A stretch of 64,000 nucleotides of DNA from a virus (lineage: Duplodnaviria; Heunggongvirae; Uroviricota; Caudoviricetes). Numbering within the stretch: position 1 is the first letter of the stretch; each line of letters begins with the position of its first letter. The notes beneath the pieces are model-generated. The model searched no databases. It was given only the letters and a program-made list of their open reading frames with translations, and was not told where the DNA came from. Below, in pieces: positions 9,928 through 42,965 of this stretch. Location: IMG/VR virus record IMGVR_UViG_3300025133_000019; one strand, written 5' to 3'. The position numbers and the translations under genes were made by a program.

Positions 9928-9956
9928 ATGACAACATCTGGATTATCTGTTATACT
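9928..9956 (+). promoter_or_regulatory. sigma70-type promoter, probably giving a leaderless mRNA at ATG 9963
   Basis: ATGACA-17-TATACT with extended TG; ATG 7 nt downstream, no SD. Confidence 0.6.
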
Positions 9957-9962
9957 TAGAGT

Positions 9963-10540
9963 ATGAAGACGACTGACCTAGACAAACTAACCGCTATTCA
10001 AAAAGCCGGGATACTTGCTAACCTGGAAACATCTGCTTATTCGAATGGTGGAGACGAACTTGTGAGTTTTGTTAACAATTTTGTTAACTTGTCTATAAAT
10101 AATGAATTCTGGTCTTCACAAGTTAATTTACATATTAAAATGTTTGGCGTAGAATTAGATATTCCTGAGAATACTAAACCTGAGCATTGGCCTTTTTACC
10201 GTGCATAGGGGATAAAATATTCATTACAAAAGGTGTAGCAAACCGTGGAGTAAAGGTTGCAGGAGTACGTCCTGAGCTTGATATGATTAATTTTAATCTG
10301 GGTGGTATAGCAGGTCATAAATTTTCTAAGGCAAACTGGATTAACTGCTTTTTTACCAAAGAATCTGGGAAACAAGACCTAGATACTGCTACGTATATTG
10401 TGGCTAGGGAACACGTGGTTTCCAAAGGAATCGAGGTTTTTTCCAGAACTCCCAGTAAACAGGATGCCCTGGATTACCGGGATGTTCTTAATAAAAATCA
10501 GGGTTCCGTGTTTAAGGTGTACCAGGAAATAAAGAGGTAG
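9963..10540 (+). pseudogene. single HWPF-domain gene split by a -1 frameshift at the T5 run 10193-10197 (or recoded)
   Basis: EHWPF (ORF 9963) joined to LPCIGDKIFI (ORF 10187) restores the HWPFxPCxGD domain seen twice in 11741..12859. Confidence 0.65.
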
Positions 10541-10542
10541 TA

Positions 10543-10875
10543 ATGAAGACTTGTCCATTTTGTGGTAGTAGTAAGGTTAAGCCCAGTTTTAACGAGTATG
10601 ATATGAATGTGATTCGGTGTACTGGGTGTCATGCCACCGGACCAATGTGCGATGGGGAATTACACGCCCAGGAAAAGTGGGATACTCGTGTAACATGGAA
10701 TACCTGCTTTAAAAATATAGGTAAAATAGAAGGTCCTATTTTAGTAAAAGATTCTAGTGACATACCATTTGTAGTACAACAAGTTGCTGTAGATCACGAA
10801 ACTTATCGCTGGAGTGATGGTTATAATTTTTATGAATTAACTCAGTTTAAAGCGTGGTCTTCCCTAGGAATATAG
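10543..10875 (+). CDS. Lar-family restriction-alleviation-like zinc-finger protein
   Basis: MKTCPFCGS...CTGCHATGP...AQEKWDTR. Confidence 0.7.
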   Translation: MKTCPFCGSSKVKPSFNEYDMNVIRCTGCHATGPMCDGELHAQEKWDTRVTWNTCFKNIGKIEGPILVKDSSDIPFVVQQVAVDHETYRWSDGYNFYELTQFKAWSSLGI

Positions 10876-11309
10876 TGATAAACGCAAATACCAAAAAAAC
10901 TAGTGTGTCAAACGAACACAAAAAAGTTTGTTGTATATGTGGAGTTACTATTACTAGTGAGGCTTGTTTATATGGTCTTAAGAACCGTAGTACTACGGTT
11001 TATGTTCACCGGGAATGCGCATATACTCCTTATACACATAGTTTACAAGCGTGTAAATATTGTGAGCAAATAATATCACCTTATGATCGCAGCGGACTAA
11101 TCTTCGAGGATTCTCTATTTCACTTGAACTGCTTAATAAGAAGTTCCTCTGTTCATAAGGTTTGTGATAAGTGTGAAGGTTTAATAACTCCGTATAATAA
11201 TGGATGTGCTTATGGGAGCCACTTTTTTCATTACAAATGCCTAGAAAAAAAGGAACTTGGTCATAACAATTCAGACAACAAGACATCTATAAAGGACCCG
11301 AAAAAGTAG
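10854..11309 (+). CDS. TP[YF] zinc-finger array protein, 3 fingers
   Basis: CCIC..HREC; CKYC.ISPY..HLNC; CDKC.ITPY..HYKC. Confidence 0.8.
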   Translation: MVFPRNIVINANTKKTSVSNEHKKVCCICGVTITSEACLYGLKNRSTTVYVHRECAYTPYTHSLQACKYCEQIISPYDRSGLIFEDSLFHLNCLIRSSSVHKVCDKCEGLITPYNNGCAYGSHFFHYKCLEKKELGHNNSDNKTSIKDPKK

Positions 11310-11315
11310 AGTGTT

Positions 11316-11744
11316 ATGTCTGTGTATGCCAAGAAAACTAGTATTCACTTTGATAACTCGGTCTGTTATTTATGTGGACGAGTTATTATTGGGCCACCAA
11401 GTTTATACGGAATACAAAACTCTATGGTACTAAAGTTTGTACACCAGGAATGTGAATTCATTGCGTATACAGATAACCTAGAAGTCTGTTGGATTTGCGA
11501 TGAGATAATAACTCCCTATAGTGACTCTATAATAAGACACGGATTAAAAATATCGCACAAAAAATGTGCGTTAGAGCAAATCCCTGTGCTAAGAAGTTGT
11601 AGAGAATGTGGTGGCCTGTTAACTCCTTATAATCCTGGGTACACAGGAATTCACGACTCGTGCGTCGGAAAAGACGTGCCAAACAACGGTCATAAAACTA
11701 ATGTGTTTCAACAAGATCCTAATAATAAGAAAGGTTTGATATGA
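11316..11744 (+). CDS. TP[YF] zinc-finger array protein, 3 fingers
   Basis: CYLC..HQEC; CWIC.ITPY..HKKC; CREC.LTPY..HDSC. Confidence 0.8.
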   Translation: MSVYAKKTSIHFDNSVCYLCGRVIIGPPSLYGIQNSMVLKFVHQECEFIAYTDNLEVCWICDEIITPYSDSIIRHGLKISHKKCALEQIPVLRSCRECGGLLTPYNPGYTGIHDSCVGKDVPNNGHKTNVFQQDPNNKKGLI

Positions 11745-12859
11745 CCGAAGAAGTTTGTAAAATATGTTCAGGAACTGGAGTTATGTATATCAACGAGGGG
11801 CACGGATGTAACTTGTCTCAAGAGAGTTTTCCATGTCCTATGTGTAATGAAGAAATAAGAAAAGTTGTGGAAGACTATACTACCGAGTTAACTAGCCATT
11901 GGCCATTTACCCCTTGTCCAGGTGACTATCTTAGGGTAAGCGGTCCTGATACTCAGGATTTTATAGCACAAGTTGCTAAAATCCTGTATCCCGGTATAAT
12001 AACATTTGAAGGTGAAAGCGAACTACTCAGTAATTTTAATAAAGAGTTCTGGGATTTAGGGTGGAGCTTTAAAAAAGTATGTGGCCCTGAGTCAAGCCTG
12101 GAATTCCAGGAAGACGGAGAAATCCTGCTATCTTTGCGATCTCGTGACGGGAACGAAGTGCAATTCCAAACACTAGGAAACGGAAAAGCTAGAATTGATA
12201 TTAGCACAGATGAGAGTTATGATATTGTCTATACTGATTTAAGCATACTTAAAGAATTTGTAGACGAAGCTACCGAGCCAGAAGAATATTCGATCCGTTT
12301 AATCGAGGGAGATCAAGAATGGGGAACGCCCCAAGATGTTGTAGAGATAAAGCCTAGTCTAGAGGATACTGAAGACTCTAAACACTGGCCCTTTATTCCT
12401 AGTGTAAATCAAAAAATTAGGATACAAGGTCCTGCCATGACAACTCAAGAAGTCGTGGTAATAGAGATTATTGATCCCATAACAATTAAATATGCAGACA
12501 AAAGAGGTGAGACTTCTCGCTGCGATTTTGATGCAGCAGGATGGGGAGTAGGATGGAAATTCGAAGCCATCGAAGAAAGCGGGGCTGACAAAATTCGCAG
12601 AGAATTTTCTAAAGAGAATTGTTTTTATTATATGGAAGAAGAAGTTTTTGATAAAGCAAGAGTTAGCAATAACCCTGTTTCCATATTCCTCGGTAGCCAG
12701 AATCTTGAGTTATGTGAAGTACTCTGGCTCATTCAAAAGGAAAAGTTTTTATTTGAAGACTTTGAGTGGTTAATGGGAGGTGCATCTAACTGGTACACTT
12801 TTCAATCGGAGTTCTCGATTTCTGCTCATAACAAGCACCCCTTTAGATTTAAGTGGTAA
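11741..12859 (+). CDS. hypothetical protein: N-terminal zinc ribbon plus two HWPF-repeat domains
   Basis: CKICSGTG...CPMC; HWPFTPCPGDYLRV...WDLGWSF and HWPFIPSVNQKIRI...WGVGWKF. Confidence 0.75.
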   Translation: MTEEVCKICSGTGVMYINEGHGCNLSQESFPCPMCNEEIRKVVEDYTTELTSHWPFTPCPGDYLRVSGPDTQDFIAQVAKILYPGIITFEGESELLSNFNKEFWDLGWSFKKVCGPESSLEFQEDGEILLSLRSRDGNEVQFQTLGNGKARIDISTDESYDIVYTDLSILKEFVDEATEPEEYSIRLIEGDQEWGTPQDVVEIKPSLEDTEDSKHWPFIPSVNQKIRIQGPAMTTQEVVVIEIIDPITIKYADKRGETSRCDFDAAGWGVGWKFEAIEESGADKIRREFSKENCFYYMEEEVFDKARVSNNPVSIFLGSQNLELCEVLWLIQKEKFLFEDFEWLMGGASNWYTFQSEFSISAHNKHPFRFKW

Positions 12860-12871
12860 CGAAGGATAACC

Positions 12872-13519
12872 ATGAAACTAGAGCATTTCGAAATAACATT
12901 TTTTGTAGACTCTGTGAATAGACGGATTATTATTGGCCGGGGAAGTTTTGAGGTCTACAATTTGTTAACCCTTGAATTCCGGGGGTCTCAAACCGAAATC
13001 ACTATTCATAAAAACAAGGCACCTGTTTTGCTAGGAAAAACTGTTGACATAGAAAAGATGTATTCCAAATGCGAATCCTACGAAGCAGCAATAGCCTTGA
13101 TGACTGACCTTTTAACCCGAGAAGCTGAGCGTATCGAACTAAAGAAAGACTCTCTTAATAACTACTACAAAAACGAAGGCGAGGCCCCGTGGTTAAATCC
13201 TGTTGAGTCTTTTGATAAAATAGAGTATATGTGTACTACTGATCTTTTGCTGAAAAAAGATATGACTCCAGGAGTTGTCTATTTAGCTCCAAAGGATGAT
13301 CCCAAATGGCTAGGACTTTTTTGTCCGTGTGGAGGGTGCAACCCTTTTAGAACCATAACACTAAATGTAAGTCCGGGGCATCCTAGTACTTATACTTATG
13401 AATTCAATGAAGCAGGTGAAATCAGTGTATCTCCAGAAATAAAAGAGATAAATTGTGACTCCCGGTTCACCATAACCAAAGGAAAAGTTGTGTGGCACAG
13501 TGACTCTCCTGAGAAATAG
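12872..13519 (+). CDS. hypothetical protein with C-terminal DUF6527-like metal-binding domain
   Basis: FCPCGGC...SVSPEI...CDSRFTITKGKVVW. Confidence 0.55.
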   Translation: MKLEHFEITFFVDSVNRRIIIGRGSFEVYNLLTLEFRGSQTEITIHKNKAPVLLGKTVDIEKMYSKCESYEAAIALMTDLLTREAERIELKKDSLNNYYKNEGEAPWLNPVESFDKIEYMCTTDLLLKKDMTPGVVYLAPKDDPKWLGLFCPCGGCNPFRTITLNVSPGHPSTYTYEFNEAGEISVSPEIKEINCDSRFTITKGKVVWHSDSPEK

Positions 13520-13588
13520 ATAACCAAGAACCTCAAAATATTCATAGAATAAAAAGAATTGCTTCCAACTTAAAGAAACACCGAATAA

Positions 13589-13984
13589 ATGAAAGCTACA
13601 GGTAACATAAACAGACAGTTAAACAAAGGAGAGAACGAATCCGTAAGCCTTGCTGAACATATAGTTTCGTCGGAACTGACTAAGTGTAAGTATTGCGGGG
13701 ACTTGCTAACTCCGTACTCCGAATACACTTATGATTACAGCCACGCAAAATCCCGCTTCAAATCTAAAGTTGCTCATGTGTATTGTATTTTCTCTGAAAA
13801 AAACGTGGGAAAACCTTGTATTGTTTGTAATCAAATTCTAACGCCTTACAATATGGGACAGTCAAAATCTATCTATCGAAGAGCCCCTGTTCATTTGAAC
13901 TGTCTACCCACTAAAGAAGAAATGGATAGAACTAGAAATTCAAAAGGAATTGAAGACCGCAAAACTAAAGTTAGGGATGACTAG
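13589..13984 (+). CDS. TP[YF] zinc-finger array protein, 2 fingers
   Basis: CKYC.LTPY..HVYC; CIVC.LTPY..HLNC. Confidence 0.8.
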   Translation: MKATGNINRQLNKGENESVSLAEHIVSSELTKCKYCGDLLTPYSEYTYDYSHAKSRFKSKVAHVYCIFSEKNVGKPCIVCNQILTPYNMGQSKSIYRRAPVHLNCLPTKEEMDRTRNSKGIEDRKTKVRDD

Positions 13985-13986
13985 TT

Positions 13987-14346
13987 ATGGCTGATATCTT
14001 CGATAATAAAACCTATGGTTTCATATTTATGGACTCCAACAAAAGCTTCGGGAGAGTACGTAAAAGTTTTGTGTATTGTTTTTACTGTAGCAAAAGATTA
14101 ACCCCTTACTCTAATTACAAGGTTTATTACACTCATAATACAGGAAACCAAGCTTTTCATGACGGGTGTTTTGTCCTGGTCAATAAAATAGGAGGGTCGT
14201 GTTCAATATGTGATAAACCAATCACTCCTTTTGAGGGTGAGGAGGTTATAGCAGGCCACCTTAACAATATCTATCATAGATCCTGTCTTTTCGATGAATC
14301 CGGGTCCATAGATGAAGGTGAGAACGATAATAAAGGCTTGGAATGA
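13987..14346 (+). CDS. TP[YF] zinc-finger array protein, 2 fingers
   Basis: CFYC.LTPY..HDGC; CSIC.ITPF..HRSC. Confidence 0.8.
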   Translation: MADIFDNKTYGFIFMDSNKSFGRVRKSFVYCFYCSKRLTPYSNYKVYYTHNTGNQAFHDGCFVLVNKIGGSCSICDKPITPFEGEEVIAGHLNNIYHRSCLFDESGSIDEGENDNKGLE

Positions 14347-14708
14347 AAGAGTTGGAAAACCGAAAAACTGATATAAATCTATACAGCCCTAATTCAAGGA
14401 AGCTAATAATTTCAGATCCTGTAGTCACAAAACACCAAGCTTGTGACCACTGCGGTGCAATTTTAACTCCGTACTCTAAATTTATTAAGAAATTTAAATA
14501 CCCTGATCGTTACGTGTCGGTTCATATCAAGTGTTTTGCGATAGTTGATATGTTAGGCAAGCACTGCGATATTTGTGGATACTTAATAACTCCTTATAAC
14601 AGAGAACAACTCTCCAGAGGGCGTGATGGAGTCGTATATCATATTTCTTGCTTAGAGGAGTCGTGGAAGGCTCTTTTCACTGTAAAAGATAGTAAGGTGT
14701 TAGAATGA
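14343..14708 (+). CDS. TP[YF] zinc-finger array protein, 2 fingers
   Basis: CDHC.LTPY..HIKC; CDIC.ITPY..HISC. Confidence 0.8.
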   Translation: MKELENRKTDINLYSPNSRKLIISDPVVTKHQACDHCGAILTPYSKFIKKFKYPDRYVSVHIKCFAIVDMLGKHCDICGYLITPYNREQLSRGRDGVVYHISCLEESWKALFTVKDSKVLE

Positions 14709-15088
14709 GTAAAGACGTTGTTCAACTGGATAGGGACATTAATAAACAAACCTCTTATATCTACGAAACAAGTAGGAAGACTGATGTTGACGTAAATATA
14801 AATATTATGGATTGTGTTTACTGTGGATACAGGCTGACTCCTTATTCTGGTATTACTGCTTACCATAATCACTCCAAAAGAGTTGCCAAAAGTCATCTTA
14901 AATGTTGGAATGATAGGTACAAGACAGGCACTCTATGTATACTCTGTAATGTCCTAATAACACCCTTCGATAACTTAGTGGTGTTTAAAATTAATGAATG
15001 CTTTTGTCATGAGGTCTGCTGGGAAGAGGATTCTGGAAAATCCGTGGCAAAAAGAAATGTTGATAAAAACGCAAATAAGACGTTATGA
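14705..15088 (+). CDS. TP[YF] zinc-finger array protein, 2 fingers
   Basis: CVYC.LTPY..HLKC; CILC.ITPF..HEVC. Confidence 0.8.
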   Translation: MSKDVVQLDRDINKQTSYIYETSRKTDVDVNINIMDCVYCGYRLTPYSGITAYHNHSKRVAKSHLKCWNDRYKTGTLCILCNVLITPFDNLVVFKINECFCHEVCWEEDSGKSVAKRNVDKNANKTL

Positions 15089-15489
15089 TAACAACTAGTA
15101 ATAAAACTTTAAGTCACGTTCCAAAAGACCGGAATAAATCACGTAATACTGCTTCTCCGAGACCTTGCCCGTATTGCGGAGAATTGATAACTCCTTACTC
15201 TGATTACGAGATTGATGGCATATACACATTCATAGATCCTCCTATTGATGGCATATACACATTCATAGATCCTCCTATTGCTCACTCTCACTGTAAAAGA
15301 TATAGGTTAACGGGAAAGTGTTGTACGATCTGCAAAGCTTTTATAACACCCTTCGGAGGTACTCAAGGTTTAGGAAATAAGGGGGCTTATCATTTGGCTT
15401 GCGTACAAGTAGATCATAGGGATTCTGTAATAAAGGGCTTACGCCCCGAAGAAATAAAGTTCTTACGAAAAGACAGGAGAACTCGATGA
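15085..15489 (+). CDS. TP[YF] zinc-finger array protein, 2 fingers, with an internal 33-bp duplication
   Basis: CPYC.ITPY..HSHC; CTIC.ITPF..HLAC. Confidence 0.8.
   Translation: MITTSNKTLSHVPKDRNKSRNTASPRPCPYCGELITPYSDYEIDGIYTFIDPPIDGIYTFIDPPIAHSHCKRYRLTGKCCTICKAFITPFGGTQGLGNKGAYHLACVQVDHRDSVIKGLRPEEIKFLRKDRRTR
15211..15276 (+). repeat. perfect 33-bp tandem duplication (IDGIYTFIDPP x2)
   Basis: attgatggcatatacacattcatagatcctcct twice. Confidence 0.95.
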
Positions 15490-15791
15490 TAACTAAATTC
15501 AAGTGTTGTGAAGAGTGCAAACGAATTCTAACTCCTTATTCCGAATACGGGGAATGGAGAGGAAGAGCCGTGCATCCCGAATGTGTTAGCGAACCAGAAA
15601 ACCGAGTTTGTCAAATCTGCCACAGATTTATGTCTTCCTTAATAAAAGAATCTTTATGCTTTTCTGGAAGACATATATACCATGCCTCTTGTTGGGATAG
15701 TGAACATCGCAAAGCAGACGAGCTTGACTATATACCGTCTAAAAAGACTAGGAGCACCCATGAAGTCCGATCTAAAAGACCAAGCAAATAA
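15486..15791 (+). CDS. TP[YF] zinc-finger array protein, 2 fingers
   Basis: CEEC.LTPY..HPEC; CQIC..HASC. Confidence 0.8.
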   Translation: MITKFKCCEECKRILTPYSEYGEWRGRAVHPECVSEPENRVCQICHRFMSSLIKESLCFSGRHIYHASCWDSEHRKADELDYIPSKKTRSTHEVRSKRPSK

Positions 15792-16146
15792 TTGGTGCGA
15801 GATATGCGGAGATCTGGTTACAAGCTCCGAATATATTTATGGTCATAAAAAGTGTTATAATACACCATTTCTACACGGCCAAAAACGAATAGAATGTGCG
15901 GTCTGTGGTCAAGTAATAACTCCCTTTGGCCCTGACTACACAGTATCACTAGGTAAAAAAATAATGCACTCCTGCTGTATAGAGACTGACCGAAGTAATA
16001 AGTTAAGAGAATGCACAGAATGCTTGGGACCCATAACTCCTTATAACCCCGCCCACTTTTTTGATACTAATACTCATGCAGGGTGTTTAGAATTCACGAT
16101 AAAGGAAGACAAGGACGAGAAAAAGACTAGGTATGAAAACTTCTAG
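15760..16146 (+). CDS. TP[YF] zinc-finger array protein, 3 fingers (start MKSDLK)
   Basis: AGGAG SD; CEIC..HKKC; CAVC.ITPF..HSCC; CTEC.ITPY..HAGC. Confidence 0.8.
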   Translation: MKSDLKDQANNWCEICGDLVTSSEYIYGHKKCYNTPFLHGQKRIECAVCGQVITPFGPDYTVSLGKKIMHSCCIETDRSNKLRECTECLGPITPYNPAHFFDTNTHAGCLEFTIKEDKDEKKTRYENF

Positions 16147-16426
16147 AAGAATTAAAAGATTTACTAAATTTACAAATTCTAACTGCAGCGTTAAAATTTG
16201 TAAAAACTGTGGTGAACTAATAACTCCATTTAGTAAAGGACACAGATTTTCATGTCACTCTTGTACTTTGGAGCCCTGCGCTTTTTGTAATAGAGTTATA
16301 ACCCCTTATACCCAGGAGTCTAGTACGCAATCCCTGTTCATATACCATGATTCCTGCCTTCATCAGTACGAGATTCACAGAATACATGTGAGGAACCAGA
16401 TGAGTAACGGTAAAACACGAGGCTAA
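16133..16426 (+). CDS. TP[YF] zinc-finger array protein, 2 fingers
   Basis: CKNC.ITPF..CHSC; CAFC.ITPY..HDSC. Confidence 0.78.
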   Translation: MKTSRRIKRFTKFTNSNCSVKICKNCGELITPFSKGHRFSCHSCTLEPCAFCNRVITPYTQESSTQSLFIYHDSCLHQYEIHRIHVRNQMSNGKTRG

Positions 16427-16439
16427 ACACGGAATTTCT

Positions 16440-16838
16440 ATGAGAAATCTTTTTTATTACAAATGCGGTGGAATCATTAAATCTGGTAACTACGATTACG
16501 TTAACAATAAGCCAGTCCATACGGAGTGTGAGGACATAGGATATCTACCTAAAAAGTCTTTTTGTATATGCTGCGGTAAATTAATTACTCCTTATGGCGA
16601 TAAATTAGCAGCTCTATCATATTCTATCATTCACGAGAATTGTCTTTTGTACGGGGTCTCTGAACCGACTAAATGTGTAGAGTGCGGAGGTTTACTGACT
16701 CCTTATAACCCCGGATTTTTAGGTCCGTATAAAAAACACATACATGTAGCTTGTTATTATACCAGCGTAATAGGAAGCCCTAAGGTCAAAAAAATAGATT
16801 CTACGCTCAATAAAACGGGACGGCACATTGGACGATGA
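16440..16838 (+). CDS. TP[YF] zinc-finger array protein, 3 fingers (first degenerate)
   Basis: YYKC..HTEC; CICC.ITPY..HENC; CVEC.LTPY..HVAC. Confidence 0.8.
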   Translation: MRNLFYYKCGGIIKSGNYDYVNNKPVHTECEDIGYLPKKSFCICCGKLITPYGDKLAALSYSIIHENCLLYGVSEPTKCVECGGLLTPYNPGFLGPYKKHIHVACYYTSVIGSPKVKKIDSTLNKTGRHIGR

Positions 16839-17142
16839 ATTTCTATTTTGCGAGGGTTGTAAACGCATGATAACTCCGTTCAGCGGGGATTATTTTGAAG
16901 ACCCTAGTGTGCATTGTGTATGTCTTTACTATCAAGGGTTAGACATCTTGAAATCATGTGTGGAATGCGATGGTATTCTAACTCCTTACAACCCTGGATG
17001 GTCGGACTTTGACGGACGCTTTGTGCATTATTCTTGTGATTCCTATGATTCAGAAGAGGATGTAGAAGATAACAAATATTTGTCCAGTCAAGACTTCTGT
17101 TGGGCTGACCGAAAAACTTGGGCTGACGATGAAAAAGATTAA
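16828..17142 (+). CDS. TP[YF] zinc-finger array protein, 2 fingers, acidic
   Basis: CEGC.ITPF..HCVC; CVEC.LTPY..HYSC. Confidence 0.78.
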   Translation: MDDEFLFCEGCKRMITPFSGDYFEDPSVHCVCLYYQGLDILKSCVECDGILTPYNPGWSDFDGRFVHYSCDSYDSEEDVEDNKYLSSQDFCWADRKTWADDEKD

Positions 17143-17265
17143 TTCAAATGTATGTTTTATTTGTTATGGGATAGCATTCTTTACCGTGGGATAAAAGCAT
17201 GCTATCATTGCGGAAAGACCGTATCTTGTTATAACCAAGGAGGGCTTAAGTACCGCAGAAAATAA
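17129..17265 (+). pseudogene. decayed zinc-finger gene remnant
   Basis: MKKINSNVCFICYG...stop in one frame, ACYHCGKTVSCYNQ in the -1 frame; no HxxC halves. Confidence 0.45.
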
Positions 17266-17274
17266 AAGTCTAAA

Positions 17275-17808
17275 ATGAGAAAGAACAAGTTAAAAATACG
17301 CACTAAAATCAAAAAATCTAGATATTCTGTTCGCAATCATAAATGCGGGATATGTTTTAGGATTATGTATGATGACAACGAGTTTTCTTTCTATTATCTT
17401 AACGGAAAAGAAAGTGTCCCAGTTCACGATGATTGCTATTTTTTGCCAGACTCCCTAGAAAGTTGTGTGGTCTGCGAAAGACCCATATCGTGGTACACAA
17501 CCGAGAGATTAGAATATGAAGGCAGAGCAGATGGAAGAGCTTTTTTTCATGAAGACTGTTATAACGTAAAACGTGCTGAATGCTTTATATGTAATAAGCC
17601 TCTTACATGCTTTGATACAGACGAGATCTGGTGGGATGAGGGAGATCCCGTTCACAGAATATGTTATGATGTTGTAAATAGTCTTGTGAATTCTAGAAGC
17701 CGTGATTTAGAATGTAGAATTTGCTGGGAAAGAATACGTCCTAATGAGACATATAAGATAGATCCCGATGGTAATACAATACACCCGGACTGTGAGTACT
17801 GGAGATAA
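17275..17808 (+). CDS. zinc-finger array protein, 4 fingers (variant motif ISWY/LTCF)
   Basis: CGIC..HDDC; CVVC..HEDC; CFIC..HRIC; CRIC..HPDC. Confidence 0.8.
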   Translation: MRKNKLKIRTKIKKSRYSVRNHKCGICFRIMYDDNEFSFYYLNGKESVPVHDDCYFLPDSLESCVVCERPISWYTTERLEYEGRADGRAFFHEDCYNVKRAECFICNKPLTCFDTDEIWWDEGDPVHRICYDVVNSLVNSRSRDLECRICWERIRPNETYKIDPDGNTIHPDCEYWR

Positions 17809-18181
17809 AGCTGTGTTTAAAAAATGTTATTGGTGCCAAGAAATAGTAACTCCTTTTACCAGATCTGTTGACCTAGTATCTGATATAGGTATTGGTATAG
17901 GACATGAACATTGCGCTGATAATTCTATACGAAATAGAACTTGCTATATATGCTATAGGTTTATTTCACCTTTAAATAAAGAAACGTTGTTATCAATGGG
18001 TAAAAAGAGGGTTTCTCACATTAACTGCCATAACTCACGTAAAACTTTCTTAAATAGAACCAAGCTGAGCAAATTTCTAGATACCTGTTCTATCTGTAAT
18101 CTACCGATAGATGAAAACGACAGGGTAGCAAGTAAATCTGGGCGGAAAATACACTTAGCATGCCAGATAGGATTGCGATGA
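17768..18181 (+). CDS. TP[YF] zinc-finger array protein, 3 fingers
   Basis: CYWC.VTPF..HEHC; CYIC.ISPL..HINC; CSIC..HLAC. Confidence 0.8.
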   Translation: MVIQYTRTVSTGDKAVFKKCYWCQEIVTPFTRSVDLVSDIGIGIGHEHCADNSIRNRTCYICYRFISPLNKETLLSMGKKRVSHINCHNSRKTFLNRTKLSKFLDTCSICNLPIDENDRVASKSGRKIHLACQIGLR

Positions 18182-18543
18182 ACCACAGGAAAAACTATAG
18201 TGGCCACCCCAAAAATTTAAACGACGGGAAGTCTTATTCACATCCCGAAGAAGACGAGTCCCCCAGATTCGGGGAGTACCACCCAGAGCCTTTGACGTGC
18301 ATGTACTGTGATCAAGCCTTAACTCCGTATGCAGAGTATGATATTCTAGATGATGAGGGATACCACACAGACTGCGAAGTTTTTGACGAGTCAGTAGGAA
18401 CAACCTGCGGAGTATGCGAAAGATTTATATCTCCATTTGGGGATACAGATTTTTATTATACATCCATAGGAGTAATACATGATTCGTGTTGGACAGAACA
18501 CATAAACCGAAGAGAAATCAACAGTCTAAAAAGAAAATGGTAA
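18178..18543 (+). CDS. TP[YF] zinc-finger array protein, 2 fingers
   Basis: CMYC.LTPY..HTDC; CGVC.ISPF..HDSC; ATGA coupling. Confidence 0.8.
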   Translation: MNHRKNYSGHPKNLNDGKSYSHPEEDESPRFGEYHPEPLTCMYCDQALTPYAEYDILDDEGYHTDCEVFDESVGTTCGVCERFISPFGDTDFYYTSIGVIHDSCWTEHINRREINSLKRKW

Positions 18544-18908
18544 AAGACCCAGATAATTCAAATAAAGCTCCGTTATTCCTAGGCTTTTCAGATGTTCTAT
18601 TAAGGTCCTGTTATAAATGCGGGTATATTATATCTCCTTTTGATATGTCAGAGAGTTTTATTTCACTATACGGATCTTACCACAAAGATTGTGCAACACT
18701 ACTAGATACCAAAAGGGAGAGCTGTAGTTTTTGTAATAAAATCCTTACCCCCTTTGATGAAGACAGAGAACACTTTGAATGTTATATGGCCGATTCTCAG
18801 CCTAAACCAGGATGCTCTAAATGCGGGGAAGCCTATACTCCCTATAGTGATACAGATCACTATGACTGTGATACCGATCCTAAGCATGAAAGAAAAGTTT
18901 TGAAGTGA
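18537..18908 (+). CDS. TP[YF] zinc-finger array protein, 3 fingers (short loops)
   Basis: CYKC.ISPF..HKDC; CSFC.LTPF..HFEC; CSKC.YTPY..HYDC. Confidence 0.8.
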   Translation: MVKDPDNSNKAPLFLGFSDVLLRSCYKCGYIISPFDMSESFISLYGSYHKDCATLLDTKRESCSFCNKILTPFDEDREHFECYMADSQPKPGCSKCGEAYTPYSDTDHYDCDTDPKHERKVLK

Positions 18909-19237
18909 GAAAAAATAAGATTAATGCAGAAGGATCTAAGATTCTTACTTGCGGAATTTGCCGTAGAATATCTAGCCCTTACGATAACAAAGGGATGACT
19001 TTCTCCAAAATCTTAGGGATTGTTCATATATCTTGCTTTGCAACCGGAAGTGCTAACACAACTGAGTACTGCCCCTTTTGTGAACGAGCTATAACTCCGT
19101 ATAGCGGACTTTTATCTGAAGCCTGGAATGGCTATAGATACCATAAATCTTGCCGTGCCTATTTCATAAATTCTCTAAAAAAAAGAAAAGAGGATAGAAG
19201 TACCGCCAACAAAACTAGATATCATGAGAGACACTAA
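18905..19237 (+). CDS. TP[YF] zinc-finger array protein, 2 fingers
   Basis: CGIC.SSPY..HISC; CPFC.ITPY..HKSC. Confidence 0.8.
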   Translation: MRKNKINAEGSKILTCGICRRISSPYDNKGMTFSKILGIVHISCFATGSANTTEYCPFCERAITPYSGLLSEAWNGYRYHKSCRAYFINSLKKRKEDRSTANKTRYHERH

Positions 19238-19643
19238 AGAAAATAGGATAAAAGATATTCAAAGACATTCTAGGTTTGATGATGATAAGTCTATTCCGGT
19301 TTGTGGGTTTTGTGGCCTTCGTATGAGCCCTTTTGATACTTATGAATATTCTGGTAGAGCTAACTTCTACTATCATATCAATTGCTTTCTCTGGTCTAAA
19401 GAGACTGTAGAAAGGTGTGAAGTATGTTTAGGGATGCTCAGTCCATTCGGAGAAAGTTACTATAACAACATTCACCGATCTTGCTCCTATTCTAATATGG
19501 TTTCCAAAAAATCTTGCGGGATTTGTGGTTATAAGTTTAGCCCTTTTGGTTCAGAGGTCATACTTCACTCTTCTAGCAGCGGAGGCAGGACATCTTTAGT
19601 GCATGAGCTATGTTGTATAACTCGTAAAAACCGGGTAAAATAA
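19224..19643 (+). CDS. TP[YF] zinc-finger array protein, 3 fingers
   Basis: CGFC.MSPF..HINC; CEVC.LSPF..HRSC; CGIC.FSPF..HELC. Confidence 0.8.
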   Translation: MRDTKENRIKDIQRHSRFDDDKSIPVCGFCGLRMSPFDTYEYSGRANFYYHINCFLWSKETVERCEVCLGMLSPFGESYYNNIHRSCSYSNMVSKKSCGICGYKFSPFGSEVILHSSSSGGRTSLVHELCCITRKNRVK

Positions 19644-19645
19644 CT

Positions 19646-19984
19646 ATGGATCTTAGCCACAGAAAAAGACTTCGAGGTAACAGTAGATCTCCTAGCTATA
19701 CATGTTCGATCTGTGGCAGTGTTATCAGCCCTTATTCGGATGAGATATGCGTAATAACAGACCATGAAGGCAGTTTCATTAAGATGCAGCACGAAAACTG
19801 CTACTTATATCACCATGATAGACTAGAAGTCTGTCAAGAGTGTGGGCTAGTAGTAAACTCTCCCTACAACCGGGAAAGATGTTTATTCTACAAATATAGC
19901 TATATTCATCAGAGCTGCTTGGAATTTAAAATAGATAGCAAATGTCAGGATAATCTTATCAAGTACAATAAGAACTTGAAATAA
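19646..19984 (+). CDS. TP[YF] zinc-finger array protein, 2 fingers
   Basis: CSIC.ISPY..HENC; CQEC.NSPY..HQSC. Confidence 0.8.
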   Translation: MDLSHRKRLRGNSRSPSYTCSICGSVISPYSDEICVITDHEGSFIKMQHENCYLYHHDRLEVCQECGLVVNSPYNRERCLFYKYSYIHQSCLEFKIDSKCQDNLIKYNKNLK

Positions 19985-20006
19985 ATATTTTGTTTTCCAT
20001 TACAAC

Positions 20007-20231
20007 GTGGAGCATAAAGTTTGTAGTTACTGTAGAAAAGTGATAACCCCGTTTGATTTACAAAAAATAACTACTATATCTGAGGATACTTTTTGTCACT
20101 CTTCTTGTGAGGAGAACATAATAGAAAAGTGGATAAACTATTGCTCTTTTTTCATACAAAACAACTCTAGCCGTCCTAAAACAAAACCCTCCACGGACAC
20201 AGATTCCAAGAAAAACTCTTACTATTCATAA
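20007..20231 (+). CDS. TP[YF] zinc-finger array protein, 1 finger
   Basis: CSYC.ITPF..HSSC. Confidence 0.7.
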   Translation: MEHKVCSYCRKVITPFDLQKITTISEDTFCHSSCEENIIEKWINYCSFFIQNNSSRPKTKPSTDTDSKKNSYYS

Positions 20232-20273
20232 ATAACTCTTTGAATATTAAACCGTTTACTGTATTATATTGCT

Positions 20274-20579
20274 ATGAGAGCTGACCCGGACAAGGGCTTT
20301 AACAAAAGTACCGGATTCATCCTTAGGAATAAGGGTTGTAATTGGTGTAACCAGCCCTGTGTTACTTTGTACTGCTCTTGGCTATGTTATATATCATACA
20401 ACGGGCAAGTTTTTACTCATTGTATAGAATGTCTTAAAAGGATTACTCCTTACGACAAAAACATATCCCCTGTGTCTAGTATGTCTTTGGGAACGATCCT
20501 TAAAAAAGGAGTGGTCCACGACCACTGTAAAAAAGAATCATACGAAAAACGCTCTGGTTCTATTGATTTCTCCAGATAA
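20274..20579 (+). CDS. TP[YF] zinc-finger array protein (terminal member)
   Basis: CNWC..CSWLC; CIEC.ITPY..HDHC. Confidence 0.72.
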   Translation: MRADPDKGFNKSTGFILRNKGCNWCNQPCVTLYCSWLCYISYNGQVFTHCIECLKRITPYDKNISPVSSMSLGTILKKGVVHDHCKKESYEKRSGSIDFSR

Positions 20580-21098
20580 AAATCTTTTAAATCTCTTTGT
20601 TTCGTTCTCACGGTCCTTTTTTAGTAGGTCCAAACAGCTAGGTATTTCGTCTCTTTCATGGTTTTTGATAGCTAACCACACTAACTCTCTAGAAACCTCT
20701 CTAATATCACGTAATTCGCCCCCTGCCATACACAATGGCTCTAAGGTTGCCCCCCTAGTTTCCAAGTAATTAGATAAATCCCTAGAAACCGAGTCTGTAT
20801 TTAGCTTTCCTCCAGCTCCCTTGTGCTCGAAAAAGTCGTCGTTTTCAAAGAAAGAGCCTCTCACTATCACATAAAGCTCCATTTTTGAGGCCCCGGATAC
20901 TCTGTGGTATTCAGCTTTAACATCTGACAACACTGAAAAATCTAAGAGACCCTTCGAAGTTCTTATTTTAATGACGTTATCACTTGTATTAATCCGGCAA
21001 TCGCAAAATCTAGAGAAAAAGTCTTCCATCCCTCGGATAATTTCAGAGGACAAAGTAACAAAGTTAGAAAACTTAAAGTCCTCTTTATTCAGAAGCAT
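20538..21098 (-). CDS. hypothetical protein
   Basis: 186-aa ORF with GGAGG SD, convergent on the array. Confidence 0.7.
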   Translation of the reverse strand: MLLNKEDFKFSNFVTLSSEIIRGMEDFFSRFCDCRINTSDNVIKIRTSKGLLDFSVLSDVKAEYHRVSGASKMELYVIVRGSFFENDDFFEHKGAGGKLNTDSVSRDLSNYLETRGATLEPLCMAGGELRDIREVSRELVWLAIKNHERDEIPSCLDLLKKDRENETKRFKRFLSGEINRTRAFFV

Positions 21099-28173: not shown

Positions 28174-30576
28174 ATGTTACAAGAAATACTTAAATCCATT
28201 ATAGACCTCAGAGAAAAAGAGTGGGGAGAGCGGAGAATAGCACAACACTTTAAAGAAAAGGGCTTTTCTTTTATGACTCGTTACAAGGTGAACGAGTTAA
28301 TTAATGGTCTGGATAATTTCAACCTGGAATTCTACCAAGGAAAAACTTTAGAAGAGGTTTTTCCTAGCATAGCTGTCCAGAACAAAAGAATCACTGAGAA
28401 CAGTATTGAAGAAGACAGGAAACTCAAAAAAGTCAAGTCTGAGAGGGACTCGTACAAGAAGAAGTACGACCAGCTAATGAAGGAAAACAAAGACCTTCAA
28501 GAAAGACAAGATCTTTTAGATGATGTGGAAAGAAACTTTGATGTTAGTAAAGTAACTAAAAGTATCCCTGTTACACCTAAGAACTCCAAAAACATGGACC
28601 GGGCTACTGCGTTTATGATAGCTAGCGATTGGCATATTGAGGAGAGGGTAGACCCGGCGACCATTAACGGGTTAAACGAGTATAATTTGTCTATCTCTGA
28701 GGCGAGATCAAGAGAGTTTTTTAGAAACGGAGTAGACCTTTTAAATAACATGTCTACTTTCCATCAGATAGATACTCTAGTTTTAGGATTACTCGGGGAC
28801 ATGATAACTGGGTATATACACGAAGAGCTAATGGAAAGCAATGAATGCTCTCCAACTCTGGCAATGCTAAGAGCCCAAGAGTATATTACATGGGGTATTG
28901 AATACATCCTTAAAAATACTGAACTAAATGAGATTATTATCCCTTGTTGTTTCGGAAACCACGGACGAACAACCCAGAAAAGAAGGATAAGTACTGGTTA
29001 CTCTAATTCTTTTGAGTGGGCTATGTATAAAAACTTGGAAAAAATGTATGAGGATCACGAGCAGATAGAGTTCATCGTAGCTACCGGGTCTCACATATAT
29101 TTAGAAATCTTTGAAAACTTTACAGTAAGATTCCATCACGGAGATGATATTAGATATCTTGGCGGTGTAGGAGGATTAACTATTCCTCTTAATAAAGCTA
29201 TAGCTGGGTGGGACACCGTAAAAAAGGCAGACTTAACAGTCATTGGTCACTTTCATCAACTCACTGATACAGGAAACGCTGTTGTTAACGGATGCTTCAC
29301 GGAAGACATGCTAATAACTATGGAAAACGGCACTAGAAAATCTATTGCTGAAGTCCAGATTGGTGAGAAAGTTTTAACAAGAACTGGAGAATCTCATAGG
29401 GTTGTTAATACGTTAAAGAGGCCCCACAACGATAGATTACTCAATATAAGGTTCCAAGGCAAACAAAACGATATTAGGTGTACTCCTAACCACGAATTTT
29501 GGGCCATAAAAAACAATAGGACTTCTCAAACCTTAAGGCCGAGAGGAACTAAGGATTACACAAGAACTCCTGAATTTTTAGAGGCTGAGTGGATACCCGC
29601 CGAGTGTCTGAACAAGGGTGACTTAATACAAATTCCTTGGGACAAAGAGATTGTTGATGATCCTAATCTGGACTTAGACTTCTGTAGATTACTGGGATTT
29701 TACTTGGCAGAAGGTTCCATATCAAGACGTTATACTAAAAAAGAAAAAGTTGAAAAACTAAACCAAATAAATTTTACATTTCATATAGATGAAGTAGAAT
29801 ATTCTGACTTTGTTGAAAAAACTTTGAAAGATAGATTTGATTGCCATATAGGTCTCTCAGTTAGAGACGAAAAAACTACACGAGCTGTAGTTGTTAGTAG
29901 AGAACATATTTCAAATAGATTTTATGAGCTATGTGGTAAAGGCTCCCACAACAAAATAATGAGTGAAGTCTTGATGAAGCTACCGCCCGAGAAGCAGGAA
30001 CAAATTCTCATGGGATGGATTCAAGGGGACGGGCATGTTAACAAGGGCAACTCTGCCAAGGGAAGATTCAGAAACGTGTCGGGAGCGACTGTTAGTTTTG
30101 ATTTAGCTTGTCAAATGTACATTTTAGCTCTTAGATGCGGTCTCAAGCCGAGGCTATACTCCCAACAAGCTAATTCGCAAAGAAAAAGTAATTGTTATGC
30201 CATCCACTTCGGAAAAGAAGATTACCATAAAATTCTTGAGGAAATGGACGATGGAAAAATAAAAGCCGAATTTAGGCAAAGTTCCCAGTTCAGAAAGACC
30301 GATATAGGAATGAGAGAGGTTGACGGAGACCTATTCGTACCTATAGAAAATATTTGGTCCGAAGATTTTAACGGATCTGTTTATGATCTACAAGTAGAAA
30401 ATGAACATTCCTATGTGGTAAATGGAATAGGAGTTCACAACTCTTTAATTGGTTTTGGGCCTTACGCATTGTCAATAAAGGCTTCGTATGAGCCTGCTCA
30501 GCAAGCGTTTTTCTTAGTTCATGAGACTCATGGAAAAACTATATTCTCGCCCATTCAAGTAATGGTTGAAGATTAA
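28174..30576 (+). CDS. calcineurin-like metallophosphoesterase with N-terminal HTH/coiled coil, interrupted by an intein
   Basis: SDWH, GDMITG, GNHGR, HHGD, GHFH, and NG|SL after splicing. Confidence 0.85.
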   Translation: MLQEILKSIIDLREKEWGERRIAQHFKEKGFSFMTRYKVNELINGLDNFNLEFYQGKTLEEVFPSIAVQNKRITENSIEEDRKLKKVKSERDSYKKKYDQLMKENKDLQERQDLLDDVERNFDVSKVTKSIPVTPKNSKNMDRATAFMIASDWHIEERVDPATINGLNEYNLSISEARSREFFRNGVDLLNNMSTFHQIDTLVLGLLGDMITGYIHEELMESNECSPTLAMLRAQEYITWGIEYILKNTELNEIIIPCCFGNHGRTTQKRRISTGYSNSFEWAMYKNLEKMYEDHEQIEFIVATGSHIYLEIFENFTVRFHHGDDIRYLGGVGGLTIPLNKAIAGWDTVKKADLTVIGHFHQLTDTGNAVVNGCFTEDMLITMENGTRKSIAEVQIGEKVLTRTGESHRVVNTLKRPHNDRLLNIRFQGKQNDIRCTPNHEFWAIKNNRTSQTLRPRGTKDYTRTPEFLEAEWIPAECLNKGDLIQIPWDKEIVDDPNLDLDFCRLLGFYLAEGSISRRYTKKEKVEKLNQINFTFHIDEVEYSDFVEKTLKDRFDCHIGLSVRDEKTTRAVVVSREHISNRFYELCGKGSHNKIMSEVLMKLPPEKQEQILMGWIQGDGHVNKGNSAKGRFRNVSGATVSFDLACQMYILALRCGLKPRLYSQQANSQRKSNCYAIHFGKEDYHKILEEMDDGKIKAEFRQSSQFRKTDIGMREVDGDLFVPIENIWSEDFNGSVYDLQVENEHSYVVNGIGVHNSLIGFGPYALSIKASYEPAQQAFFLVHETHGKTIFSPIQVMVED
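29293..30441 (+). mobile_element. intein (383 aa) with LAGLIDADG homing endonuclease
   Basis: Starts CFTEDMLIT; block B TPNHEF; LLGFYLAEG and LMGWIQGDG; ends VYDLQVENEHSYVVNGIGVHN|S. Confidence 0.93.
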
Positions 30577-41720: not shown

Positions 41721-42965
41721 ATGGTTAAAAAAAGCACTACCAAGTCTCCTGTTATAATAGATACTAACGTACTCTTAACAGATCCCTACATCTTAAATAA
41801 GTTCTCAAACAGAGAAATACTAATGCCTGTGGCGATTCTAAAAGAGCTGGACACCTTCAAGAAAGGGGCCTCTCTTATAAACAAGAACTCCAGAACAGTT
41901 ATAAGATTATTCGAGAAGATAAGAAAGACTCCTGTGGAACAAAGAAATGTTACATTCATGTCTGCCTCAGAGTACGACATAAAAAATCCTGTGGATGACA
42001 TAATTATAGAAATAGCCAAAAACCGGGGAGCTAAAATTATATCTAATGATATAAATGTAAGAGTCAGTGCTACTTGTGAAAATATAGACGCAGAAGATTA
42101 TAAACCACATAAAAATTTGGAAAGACACTCTCCCCAGTTATATAAAGGGCATACCCTACTCAGGAAAAACCCTTTTAGCAGACCTGAAAACTTGAGAAAG
42201 ACTCCTAATCACTATTTTGTATATGACGATGATAAGAACAACAAAAAAATATGTAAGTTTGTTAACGGAACTCTAAATCTTATAAAGTACCAGAGAATCC
42301 AACATATAGAAGGAATTGCCCCTTTAAATATATACCAGCAGATGGCTATGGACGCTCTGATGTCCCCTGAAATAGAAGTTGTTTCTTTAATAGGGAATGC
42401 TGGTACAGGTAAAACTTTGTTAGCTCTTGCTTGTGGTATTCAACAATGTAAATCATCATCCAACCCAAAATATTTAAGTGTATCAGTGGGACGAGCTATT
42501 GTTCCTATCGGAAGGGATATAGGAGCGCTGCCAGGAGACCTTGAAGATAAGATAAAACCTTATTTGTCTCCAGTATATGATAATTTAGAAGTTTTAGCAG
42601 AAGTAAACGGAGACCCTTACGATCAAACTTATTCAAATGATTTGTTTGACTCCCATATACTGTCTATCCAAGCTTTCTCTTTTATGAGAGGTAGAAGTAT
42701 AAGTAAGAAATACCTTATCATAGACGAAGCTCAAAACTTAACTCATCATGAAATTAAGACTATTGTAACTCGTGCTGGAAAAGGTACAAAGATAGTGTTT
42801 GTAGGTGACCCACAACAAATAGACATACCAGAATTAAATTCTGAAAATAACGGTTTAACTTACCTAACAGAAGCTTTCACGGGTCAAAAATGCTTTGCTA
42901 CCGTGACTCTAGAAAAAGTAGAGAGATCTGGATTAGCTGACTTGGCGGTAAAAATTCTAAAATAA
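41721..42965 (+). CDS. phoH: PIN-PhoH (PhoH2/YlaK-like) protein
   Basis: IIDTNVLL PIN motif; GNAGTGKT, GALPGDLEDK, MRGRS, IIDEAQN, GDPQQID. Confidence 0.92.
   Translation: MVKKSTTKSPVIIDTNVLLTDPYILNKFSNREILMPVAILKELDTFKKGASLINKNSRTVIRLFEKIRKTPVEQRNVTFMSASEYDIKNPVDDIIIEIAKNRGAKIISNDINVRVSATCENIDAEDYKPHKNLERHSPQLYKGHTLLRKNPFSRPENLRKTPNHYFVYDDDKNNKKICKFVNGTLNLIKYQRIQHIEGIAPLNIYQQMAMDALMSPEIEVVSLIGNAGTGKTLLALACGIQQCKSSSNPKYLSVSVGRAIVPIGRDIGALPGDLEDKIKPYLSPVYDNLEVLAEVNGDPYDQTYSNDLFDSHILSIQAFSFMRGRSISKKYLIIDEAQNLTHHEIKTIVTRAGKGTKIVFVGDPQQIDIPELNSENNGLTYLTEAFTGQKCFATVTLEKVERSGLADLAVKILK

Follow-up and report, generated by a model that had tools for sequence, protein, structure and literature searches.

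What is encoded by the string of small genes at positions 10854-20579 of a 64,000-nucleotide stretch of viral DNA (IMG/VR record IMGVR_UViG_3300025133_000019, Caudoviricetes; the whole stretch is called the window in the following), and what might a phage do with so many divergent copies of one zinc-finger module? Here, we observe that the string is a multigene family with rapid birth and death of genes at one fixed position in a single clade of jumbo phages. Its genes are real and under purifying selection, and its fingers, marked by a TP[YF] motif, make up an undescribed zinc-finger family. Judging from the contigs that carry it and from the lack of matches among GenBank phages, the window derives from an uncultivated jumbo phage without a close isolate.

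Combining the list of open reading frames (ORFs) with a regular-expression scan, we find 21 co-directional genes of 74-177 amino acids (aa) on the + strand. They carry 48 fingers of the looser ligand pattern C-x2-C...[H/C]-x2-C, one to four in each gene, in good agreement with the about 21 genes and about 50 fingers counted in an earlier, sequence-only reading of this DNA. A strict finger pattern, C..C...[ILMVFA][TS][PS][YFW], was scanned in six frames across the whole window: all 35 matches are located on the + strand within the array (11052-20421), and none was found outside of it. The sequence-only reading had missed that two genes unrelated to the family split the 21 members at 11741-13519. 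Likewise, the genes had been described as often ATGA-coupled, which holds for only five junctions with true 4-nt ATGA/GTGA overlaps, while the others show different overlaps or short gaps. Between 9000 and 22500 the ORF list gives an unbroken string of + strand ORFs, and the array genes are probably transcribed as one long string with partial translational coupling. The family members, numbered g1 to g21, are listed below together with a strain-variable segment (pI, isoelectric point; dN and dS, non-synonymous and synonymous substitution rates).

10854-11309, + strand: g1, 151 aa; three fingers, one degenerate and two strict, the last of TPYN type; public gene calls start at GTG 10875 and give 144 aa.
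11316-11744, + strand: g2, 142 aa; three fingers, one degenerate and two strict, the last of TPYNPG type.
13589-13984, + strand: g3, 131 aa; two strict fingers.
13987-14346, + strand: g4, 119 aa; two strict fingers; the member with a modelled structure.
14343-14708, + strand: g5, 121 aa; two strict fingers; ATGA overlap with g4.
14705-15088, + strand: g6, 127 aa; two strict fingers; ATGA overlap.
15085-15489, + strand: g7, 134 aa; two strict fingers, with the longest spacer (35) and a duplication in the finger-A loop.
15486-15791, + strand: g8, 101 aa; one strict and one degenerate finger.
15682-16146, + strand: g9, 154 aa as the longest ORF; one degenerate and two strict fingers; public start at 15760, 128 aa.
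16133-16426, + strand: g10, 97 aa; two strict fingers.
16440-16838, + strand: g11, 132 aa; two strict fingers and an N-terminal degenerate one.
16828-17142, + strand: g12, 104 aa, TTG start; two strict fingers; pI 4.1; the public start at 16867 would truncate finger 1.
17275-17808, + strand: g13, 177 aa; four degenerate fingers without TP[YF].
17768-18181, + strand: g14, 137 aa; one strict and two degenerate fingers; in the strain-variable cassette; dN/dS 0.14.
18160-18543, + strand: g15, 127 aa; two strict fingers; pI 4.8; in the strain-variable cassette; dS 1.15, dN/dS 0.19.
18486-18908, + strand: g16, 140 aa; two strict fingers and one degenerate; N-terminal half in the cassette; dN/dS 0.17.
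18905-19237, + strand: g17, 110 aa, GTG start; 4-nt overlap; one degenerate and one strict finger.
19224-19643, + strand: g18, 139 aa; three strict fingers of SPF type.
19646-19984, + strand: g19, 112 aa; one strict and one degenerate finger.
20007-20231, + strand: g20, 74 aa, GTG start; a single strict finger; the least certain gene.
20274-20579, + strand: g21, 101 aa, the last gene; a Cys-rich N-terminal part and one strict finger; its 3' end overlaps the gene at 20538-21098.
17750-18800 (approximate), no strand: allelic cassette of about 1 kb.

By its pattern, each finger is predicted to bind zinc through the ligands C, C, H and C, of which H is kept in 46 of 48 fingers and the other three are invariant. 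Around the ligands a scaffold recurs with I/L at position 8 (38/48), T/S at position 9 (42/48), P at position 10 (38/48) and Y/F at position 11 (38/48). The spacer between the ligand pairs covers 11-35 residues (mode 19-21), and neighbouring fingers are linked by 10 residues in 13 of 27 cases (range 4-19). At the strict cores the first Cys is encoded by TGT 26 times and by TGC nine times; the conserved Pro uses all four codons, and the conserved Ser uses both AGY and TCN. Since synonymous codons vary in this way and the 33-nt finger cores have a mean nucleotide identity of only 57%, the ligands and TP[YF] are conserved at the protein level, as had been claimed before. The paralogs are 15-33% identical around a two-finger core. 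In the alignments the conserved residues are structural only, surface loops and tails vary, and no basic surface position is conserved across members; alignments and finger statistics together bear out the earlier description of a fixed zinc scaffold with variable loops and tails. Four members (g10, g17, g20 and g21) have no automatic gene call on public copies of the contig, yet their fingers are intact. The coding sequence of the array amounts to about 8 kb, that of a sister lineage to more than 11 kb, and the g3-g21 string terminates against the convergent gene at 20538-21098.

To which fold do these fingers belong? The curated libraries Pfam, PHROGs and PADLOC were scanned with ten or six array members, and none of the three gave a family above threshold for the members scanned. 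The best Pfam match is the first half of LIM (PF00412; E 0.0027, positions 1-27 of 58, 18.4 bits against a cut-off of 22.9). An AlphaFold2 model of g4, built from a 43-sequence alignment, reached a predicted local distance difference test score of 79 overall and of 82-93 over the fingers. In the model a knuckle leads into a beta-hairpin and then into a helix that begins at HxxC, and the two fingers follow one another as self-contained units; each is accordingly predicted to be an independent treble-clef C2HC module. Foldseek against the PDB placed LIM domains on top (E 4e-3 to 5e-2, probability up to 0.98); nothing was significant there (best E 4e-3) nor among the BFVD viral structures (best E 6e-3). 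In a wide VIA-align comparison RING, PHD, C1, ZZ and PARP fingers were tied at Z 3-4.5, with PARP-1 Zn1/Zn2 among the weak matches (Z 3.1-3.2). The family profile, searched against PDB sequences, found the RING-H2 domain of RLIM first (E 8e-4), followed by PCF11 and LIM.

The likeness to the first finger of LIM lies in the ligand pattern C-x2-C-x(16-23)-H-x2-C and in a hydrophobic residue four positions past the knuckle. In LIM, however, two fingers are invariably paired, two residues link them, the second is C2C[C/H/D] and TP[YF] is missing. The phage fingers are all C2HC and stand about 10 residues apart, and some genes encode a single one. LIM membership was rejected, as the score stays below the gathering threshold, the link has a mode of 10 rather than 2 and both fingers are C2HC; a profile alignment (hhalign) of the phage unit with true LIM reached a probability of 64%. 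In case of RING-H2, PHD, C1 and ZZ, zinc site 1 superposes with one phage finger at Z 3.1-4.5 and a root-mean-square deviation of 1.4-3.2 A over 36-43 residues, scores in a range which the tool itself rates as common for unrelated small folds, and the phage fingers have neither a cross-brace nor a second interleaved site. RING (C3HC4/C3H2C3) was rejected because the conserved C-x-H before HxxC is absent from the alignments and the model shows no cross-brace. The PARP-type finger (C-x2-C-x28-30-H-x2-C) was rejected on its spacer, which has a mode of 19-21 in the phage and reaches 35 in only one finger; zf-PARP gave no Pfam match at E up to 1. FCS/MYM/TRASH was rejected for the window, where 46 of 48 fingers end in H-x2-C and not in [FY]-C-S-x2-C, and the Pfam matches of zf-FCS and zf-FLZ are sub-threshold. 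Because these defining features were tested and are lacking, the fingers resemble the LIM, RING and PARP families without belonging to them; the LIM/PARP resemblance pointed out earlier is real, but weak. What is found, usually twice per protein with some 10 residues in between and in tandem arrays, is C-x2-C-x3-[ILMV]-[TS]-[PS]-[YF]...H-x2-C.

A profile search of 1.84 billion representative proteins gave 121 matches, comprising 13 window proteins, 38 other short TP[YF] proteins and 70 long proteins without TP[YF]. The TP[YF] motif occurs in 51 representative clusters (50% identity). True LIM proteins are found among the long matches, as are SAM-domain proteins built with repeats of a two-finger unit. 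With g4 as the query, a word-based homology search retrieved nothing beyond g4. The DNA of the window recurs at 99.9-100% identity in several environmental metagenomes, which we take to be marine from their Joint Genome Institute (JGI) sample numbers, and the g4 protein is found on contigs of up to 374 kb. Among 50,697 GenBank phage records no match was obtained, neither by megablast with the array and a 20-kb flank nor by tblastn with two TP[YF] members.

The family is present in at least three related lineages of uncultivated jumbo phages. Besides the lineage of the window (lineage 1), these are lineage 2 (L007-L010, L017 and L018), with about 27 genes and about 60 strict fingers, and lineage 3 (L014, L015 and a 62-kb JGI contig), with at least 29 strict fingers. 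In addition, L013 carries 11 strict fingers, and L016 is a distant relative with a single copy. In all three lineages the array lies directly upstream of the same neighbourhood, which runs from a deoxynucleoside kinase gene to Bax1-I. Some lineage-2 proteins (P0031, P0053, P0057, P0062 and P0092 among them) carry a C-terminal finger that closes with [FY]-C-S-x2-C in place of H-x2-C. Such an ending is the FCS/MYM/TRASH signature and suggests a link between these treble-clef classes.

Diplonemid protists (EukProt: Flectonema neradi, Diplonema japonicum and Lacrimia lanifica) encode the SAM-domain repeat proteins. Three of them, P0002, P0012 and P0020 from EukProt diplonemid transcriptomes, combine a SAM domain with 5-8 two-finger C2HC repeats, and the best non-phage profile match is a diplonemid protein with E 2e-29 over 8 repeats. 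One diplonemid unit aligns with the phage unit from end to end (hhalign 91%, E 1e-6), with 'FTSY' opposite 'ITPY', and both share the order of a long-loop finger, a link of about 10-12 residues and a shorter finger. The diplonemid proteins differ in their length of 360-880 aa, their N-terminal SAM domain and their S/P-rich linkers, and have neither the strict TP[YF] nor the N-K-[ST] tail described below. By sequence they are the closest non-phage relatives; they offer no functional lead, and the diplonemid repeat family itself appears to be unnamed.

How the arrays change is best seen by comparing lineages 1 and 2. The proteins next to the arrays share 30-69% identity and the DNA around them can be aligned at 66-68%, whereas the arrays do not align at the DNA level at all. 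The best protein identity across lineages is 27-39%, no better than among paralogs, and hence no 1:1 orthologs exist between the two; the positional counterpart of g21 in lineage 2, L008_10050, is 30% identical. On a poorly resolved tree, with 40 of 69 inner branches left open and used for this clustering statistic only, the members group by lineage well beyond chance, with 18 changes of lineage label against 35.4 in shuffles (0 of 200 shuffles as low). Some clades are confined to one lineage, for instance the TPYNPG group with its five members in the window, and cross-lineage pairs are few, among them g10 with L014_1966 and g20 with L014_9832. Gene presence and absence is also observed within lineage 2, where a four-finger gene (P0057-like) is complete in L018 (953-1300) and a remnant in L009 (95-320) and L017 (8852-9076). 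On a smaller scale, g7 carries a perfect 33-nt tandem duplication in the loop of finger A (15211-15276), which adds 11 residues and is a fresh example of loop-length change. Lineage clustering, the lack of orthologs, the strain differences and this duplication support the behaviour as a gene accordion that the sequence-only reading had proposed.

The strain variants L001-L006 are 99.9-100% identical, so that dN/dS is informative only from the cassette of g14-g16. Compared with strains L011/L012, this segment is 53-90% identical (identity per 150 nt) at dS 0.55-1.15, the flanks being 100% identical; here recombination has exchanged alleles within the species to which the window belongs. The dN/dS per gene is 0.14-0.19, which shows that the cassette genes are translated and constrained and that these ORFs do not evolve neutrally. 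By region, dN/dS is 0.11-0.13 in the scaffold, 0.19-0.33 in the loops and 0.31-0.32 in the tails. In this one cassette the loops are relaxed without measurable positive selection, and the tails change fastest. Diversifying selection on the loops is not supported here, since they are under purifying selection and diverge less than the tails. Hypermutation of the type driven by diversity-generating retroelements was also rejected, as no pair of template and variable repeats exists in 10500-20700; besides the motif cores and the 33-nt duplication no long near-identical direct repeats were found in this region, and no search for a reverse transcriptase was made in the window.

Outside the fingers one feature recurs. 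In every lineage most members carry the tripeptide N-K-[ST] in the N-terminal tail. It stands 11-13 residues ahead of the first Cys in lineages 1 and 2, and 23-25 residues ahead of it in lineage 3. With 66 of 134 sequences it is enriched 2.7-fold over shuffled tails, for which 24.6 would be expected, and it also occurs in several C-terminal tails. A DNA signal or a ribosome binding site was considered and rejected, given that Ser is encoded by AGY and TCN, that the motif persists in lineages whose DNA cannot be aligned and that its spacing to the first Cys is constant when counted in residues. With its varying codons NK[ST] is a protein motif, the sole conserved non-structural feature of the family, and to our knowledge nothing known matches it.

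From a biological point of view, we tentatively interpret the array as a repertoire of small binders which diversifies and would serve in host takeover or counter-defence, and give this interpretation slightly less than an even chance. It is suggested by the conservation of core residues only, by the variation of surfaces and charges, and by neighbours that include restriction-alleviation and deconjugation homologues. In the mechanism we propose, the CxxC knuckle, the following [IL]-[TS]-P-[YF] and the helix starting at HxxC would hold the zinc, while the hairpin in between (11-35 residues) would be free to vary. The ancestral unit would have comprised two fingers 10 residues apart, variable charged tails and NK[ST] at a fixed distance before finger 1. 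Array content turns over by duplication, gene loss and gain, loop insertions and deletions, and recombinational cassette exchange. Each mini-protein would then recognise a different host or competitor macromolecule via its loops and tails, and the shared NK[ST] motif may tie the members to one common partner. The heterogeneous charge (pI 4.1-9.7) points to diverse targets rather than to one nucleic-acid ligand.

Several points weigh against a repertoire of binders. We infer the function from context and evolutionary pattern only. Neither PADLOC nor the anti-defence PHROGs gave a match for the members scanned, and the loops of the one cassette (omega 0.19-0.33) show no positive selection. Early expression of the array is deduced from its position, as the promoter-like sites of the region do not exceed the shuffled expectation. 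The two inserted non-family genes are absent from the loci of other lineages examined and are for this reason not obligatory to the system. Moreover, 14 of the 21 members have a pI >8, a basic character that would suit nucleic-acid binding as well.

The last point leads to a rival that we consider unlikely, but quite conceivable: the proteins could bind nucleic acids, either as phage-specific regulators of transcription or translation or as DNA- or RNA-coating proteins. Besides the basic majority with its K/R-rich tails, this is favoured by the treble-clef fingers of PARP, GATA and FCS, which bind nucleic acids; PARP-1 Zn1/Zn2 are among the weak fold matches and some lineage-2 C-terminal fingers end like FCS/TRASH. 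The same role was proposed for the zinc-ribbon expansion of Bacillus phage G (PMC7824862). Several members, however, are strongly acidic (pI 4.1, 4.8 and 5.8), a conserved basic surface position is lacking, and a full turnover of members between phages whose other genes remain 30-69% identical is ill suited to regulators of conserved promoters.

Extending the repertoire of small binders, one may picture an immune-evasion gene accordion in which each member, by its variable loops and tails, seizes a different defence or housekeeping protein of the host and NK[ST] docks all of them to one common effector, e.g., a protease or the BubE-like homologue encoded in the array, directed at ubiquitin-like conjugation defences. 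We regard this extension as doubtful.

Upstream of and within the array four further features are of interest.

9928-9956, + strand: candidate sigma-70-like promoter, the best match upstream of the operon, with an extended -10 TG and 10/12 positions; just before the gene at 9963.
10543-10875, + strand: Lar-like restriction-alleviation zinc-ribbon gene (phrog_599, E 1.1e-6; Pfam PF14354, E 9.3e-6, 26.2 bits against a cut-off of 28.6).
11741-12859, + strand: non-family insert of 372 aa; its N-terminal part has a CxxC...CxxC knuckle pair, and HWPFxP opens each of two internal repeats.
12872-13519, + strand: DUF6527/BubE-like non-family insert of 215 aa, with the domain at residues 145-208 (Pfam PF20137).

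The gene string accordingly reads: promoter-like site at 9928, two small ORFs, Lar-like gene, g1-g2, 372-aa gene, DUF6527/BubE-like gene, g3-g21. The Lar-like gene just upstream, noticed already in the sequence-only reading, is real according to its PHROG match but weak, given its Pfam score below the cut-off; a Lar-like gene also adjoins the lineage-3 array, there above the cut-off (33.8 bits). The match of the second insert to DUF6527/BubE (PF20137) has E 9.7e-8 and 32.2 bits, above the cut-off of 23.6, and covers profile positions 1-62 of 63. In bacteria, BubE belongs to the ubiquitination-like Bub operons, which are suspected defence systems. It is a Ser-His peptidase that removes ubiquitin-like (Ubl) conjugates; in the Citrobacter enzyme S92-H102 form the invariant catalytic dyad and C57/59/61/99 a C4 zinc site (bioRxiv 10.1101/2024.11.21.623953). 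Compared by spacing with these published residues, the phage protein has the Cys cluster CPCGGC...C and a Ser at the expected distance. The position of the catalytic His, judged by spacing alone, reads Arg (C-D-S-R and not C-x-x-H), which could indicate an inactive decoy or a misalignment. In an index of 5.8 billion proteins no close relatives of this protein were found except the near-identical copy P0122 (96-99%).

Such an embedded homologue raises the question whether the fingers modulate ubiquitin-like conjugation defences (Bub, Bil and type II CBASS, the cyclic-oligonucleotide-based anti-phage signalling systems), acting as E2/E1-binding decoys or substrate adaptors together with the BubE-like peptidase homologue. 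The position of this gene inside the array, the stripping of Ubl conjugates by BubE, the leading profile match to RLIM RING-H2 (E 8e-4) and RING among the top folds speak for it. As all similarity scores are weak, the sequential fingers show neither a RING cross-brace nor the C-x-H pair, the BubE-like gene was not found in the arrays of other lineages and its catalytic His is apparently replaced, by spacing only, we hold this to be improbable.

A similarly poor case can be made for virion-packaged internal or ejected proteins, with NK[ST] as a signal for capsid targeting or processing. Jumbo phages do package many small internal proteins, and a short N-terminal motif at a fixed distance in most members would fit. 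Yet the array is far from the structural genes of the window, with oppositely oriented genes in between, and NK[ST] also occurs in C-terminal tails; we judge this reading to be very improbable. A functionless or selfish amplification of neutrally drifting ORFs, for which the extreme divergence of the copies (15-33% identity) and the several members missed by gene finders might be quoted, is hardly credible and largely refuted by dN/dS of 0.14-0.19 at dS up to 1.15, by four zinc ligands intact in 46-48 of 48 fingers and by an array kept at one locus in three diverged lineages.

The other insert, the 372-aa protein, has no family in the libraries and only a sub-threshold match to DnaJ_CXXCXGXG (E 0.052). 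Upstream of the Lar-like gene, a T5 run (CCTTTTTAC) lies where the ORFs 9963-10208 and 10187-10540 overlap. Reading through both with a -1 shift yields HWPF-LPCIGDKIFITKG, which is like the two HWPFxPxxGDxxxxxG repeats of the 372-aa protein; BLAST support for this relation is weak (E 0.17). The two ORFs may represent one frameshifted or slippage-dependent relative of the 372-aa protein.

Upstream of the array, secondary blastn matches revealed two pairs of direct repeats between genes, 7906-7974/9006-9074 (69 nt, 97%) and 9644-9709/9832-9897 (66 nt, 83%), which may be repeated regulatory elements of the early region. The context of the array is a block of small co-directional ORFs without structural genes. 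Elsewhere, the window encodes a CCA-adding/poly(A) polymerase-like enzyme with an HD domain (354-1577), an exonuclease (phrog_284) split by an intein with a LAGLIDADG homing-endonuclease domain (28174-30576; Pfam Intein_splicing 9e-12, LAGLIDADG_3 5e-7), a PIN-PhoH fusion of PhoH2 type (41721-42965), a deoxynucleoside kinase and large ORFs with Ig-like and galactose-binding domains. ARAGORN found no tRNA genes in the window, and a structural ORF of 1193 aa has no match among GenBank phages. Because the PhoH matches assorted phages at only about 35% identity, neither host nor taxon can be assigned.

Multigene arrays of this kind are well known from poxviruses and giant viruses, in which tandem, fast-turnover paralogs (ankyrin-F-box, BTB-Kelch, RING) share a docking motif and are used against host defences. 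The analogy is conceptual only, since folds and hosts are unrelated to the phage array. Among jumbo phages a large expansion of small zinc-binding proteins has been seen before: Bacillus phage G carries about 35 zinc-ribbon copies (Iyer et al. 2021, PMC7824862). Both cases are very large lineage-specific expansions of a small zinc-binding module in a jumbo phage. The phage G module is, by its published description, a zinc ribbon with two knuckles and hence of a different fold class, and, as reported above, the tblastn search with two TP[YF] members had no match among GenBank phages. The family itself is undescribed, but a tandem expansion of zinc proteins in a jumbo phage has a precedent in phage G.

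Implementing all facts, the TP[YF] family is missing from the curated libraries and from the 50,697 phage genomes covered by the searches. Purifying selection on it is nonetheless clear, and its genes turn over fast at a fixed locus. Together with phage G this suggests that tandem expansions of mini zinc proteins are recurrent and unexplained in jumbo phages. The embedded BubE-like gene is among the first hints of phage-carried homologues of the Bub-operon peptidase. In large eukaryotic viruses, rapid turnover of selected genes at one locus is the mark of host-interaction arsenals. If the gene accordion serves immune evasion, it would be the bacterial-virus counterpart of the adaptor multigene families of poxviruses and giant viruses, and the kinship with diplonemids would point to an old, unnamed zinc-finger class common to marine protists and phages. 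If the array is a host-interaction arsenal, it would provide a library of about 50 small zinc-stabilised binding modules, whose targets in an uncultivated marine host would reveal host factors or defence systems.

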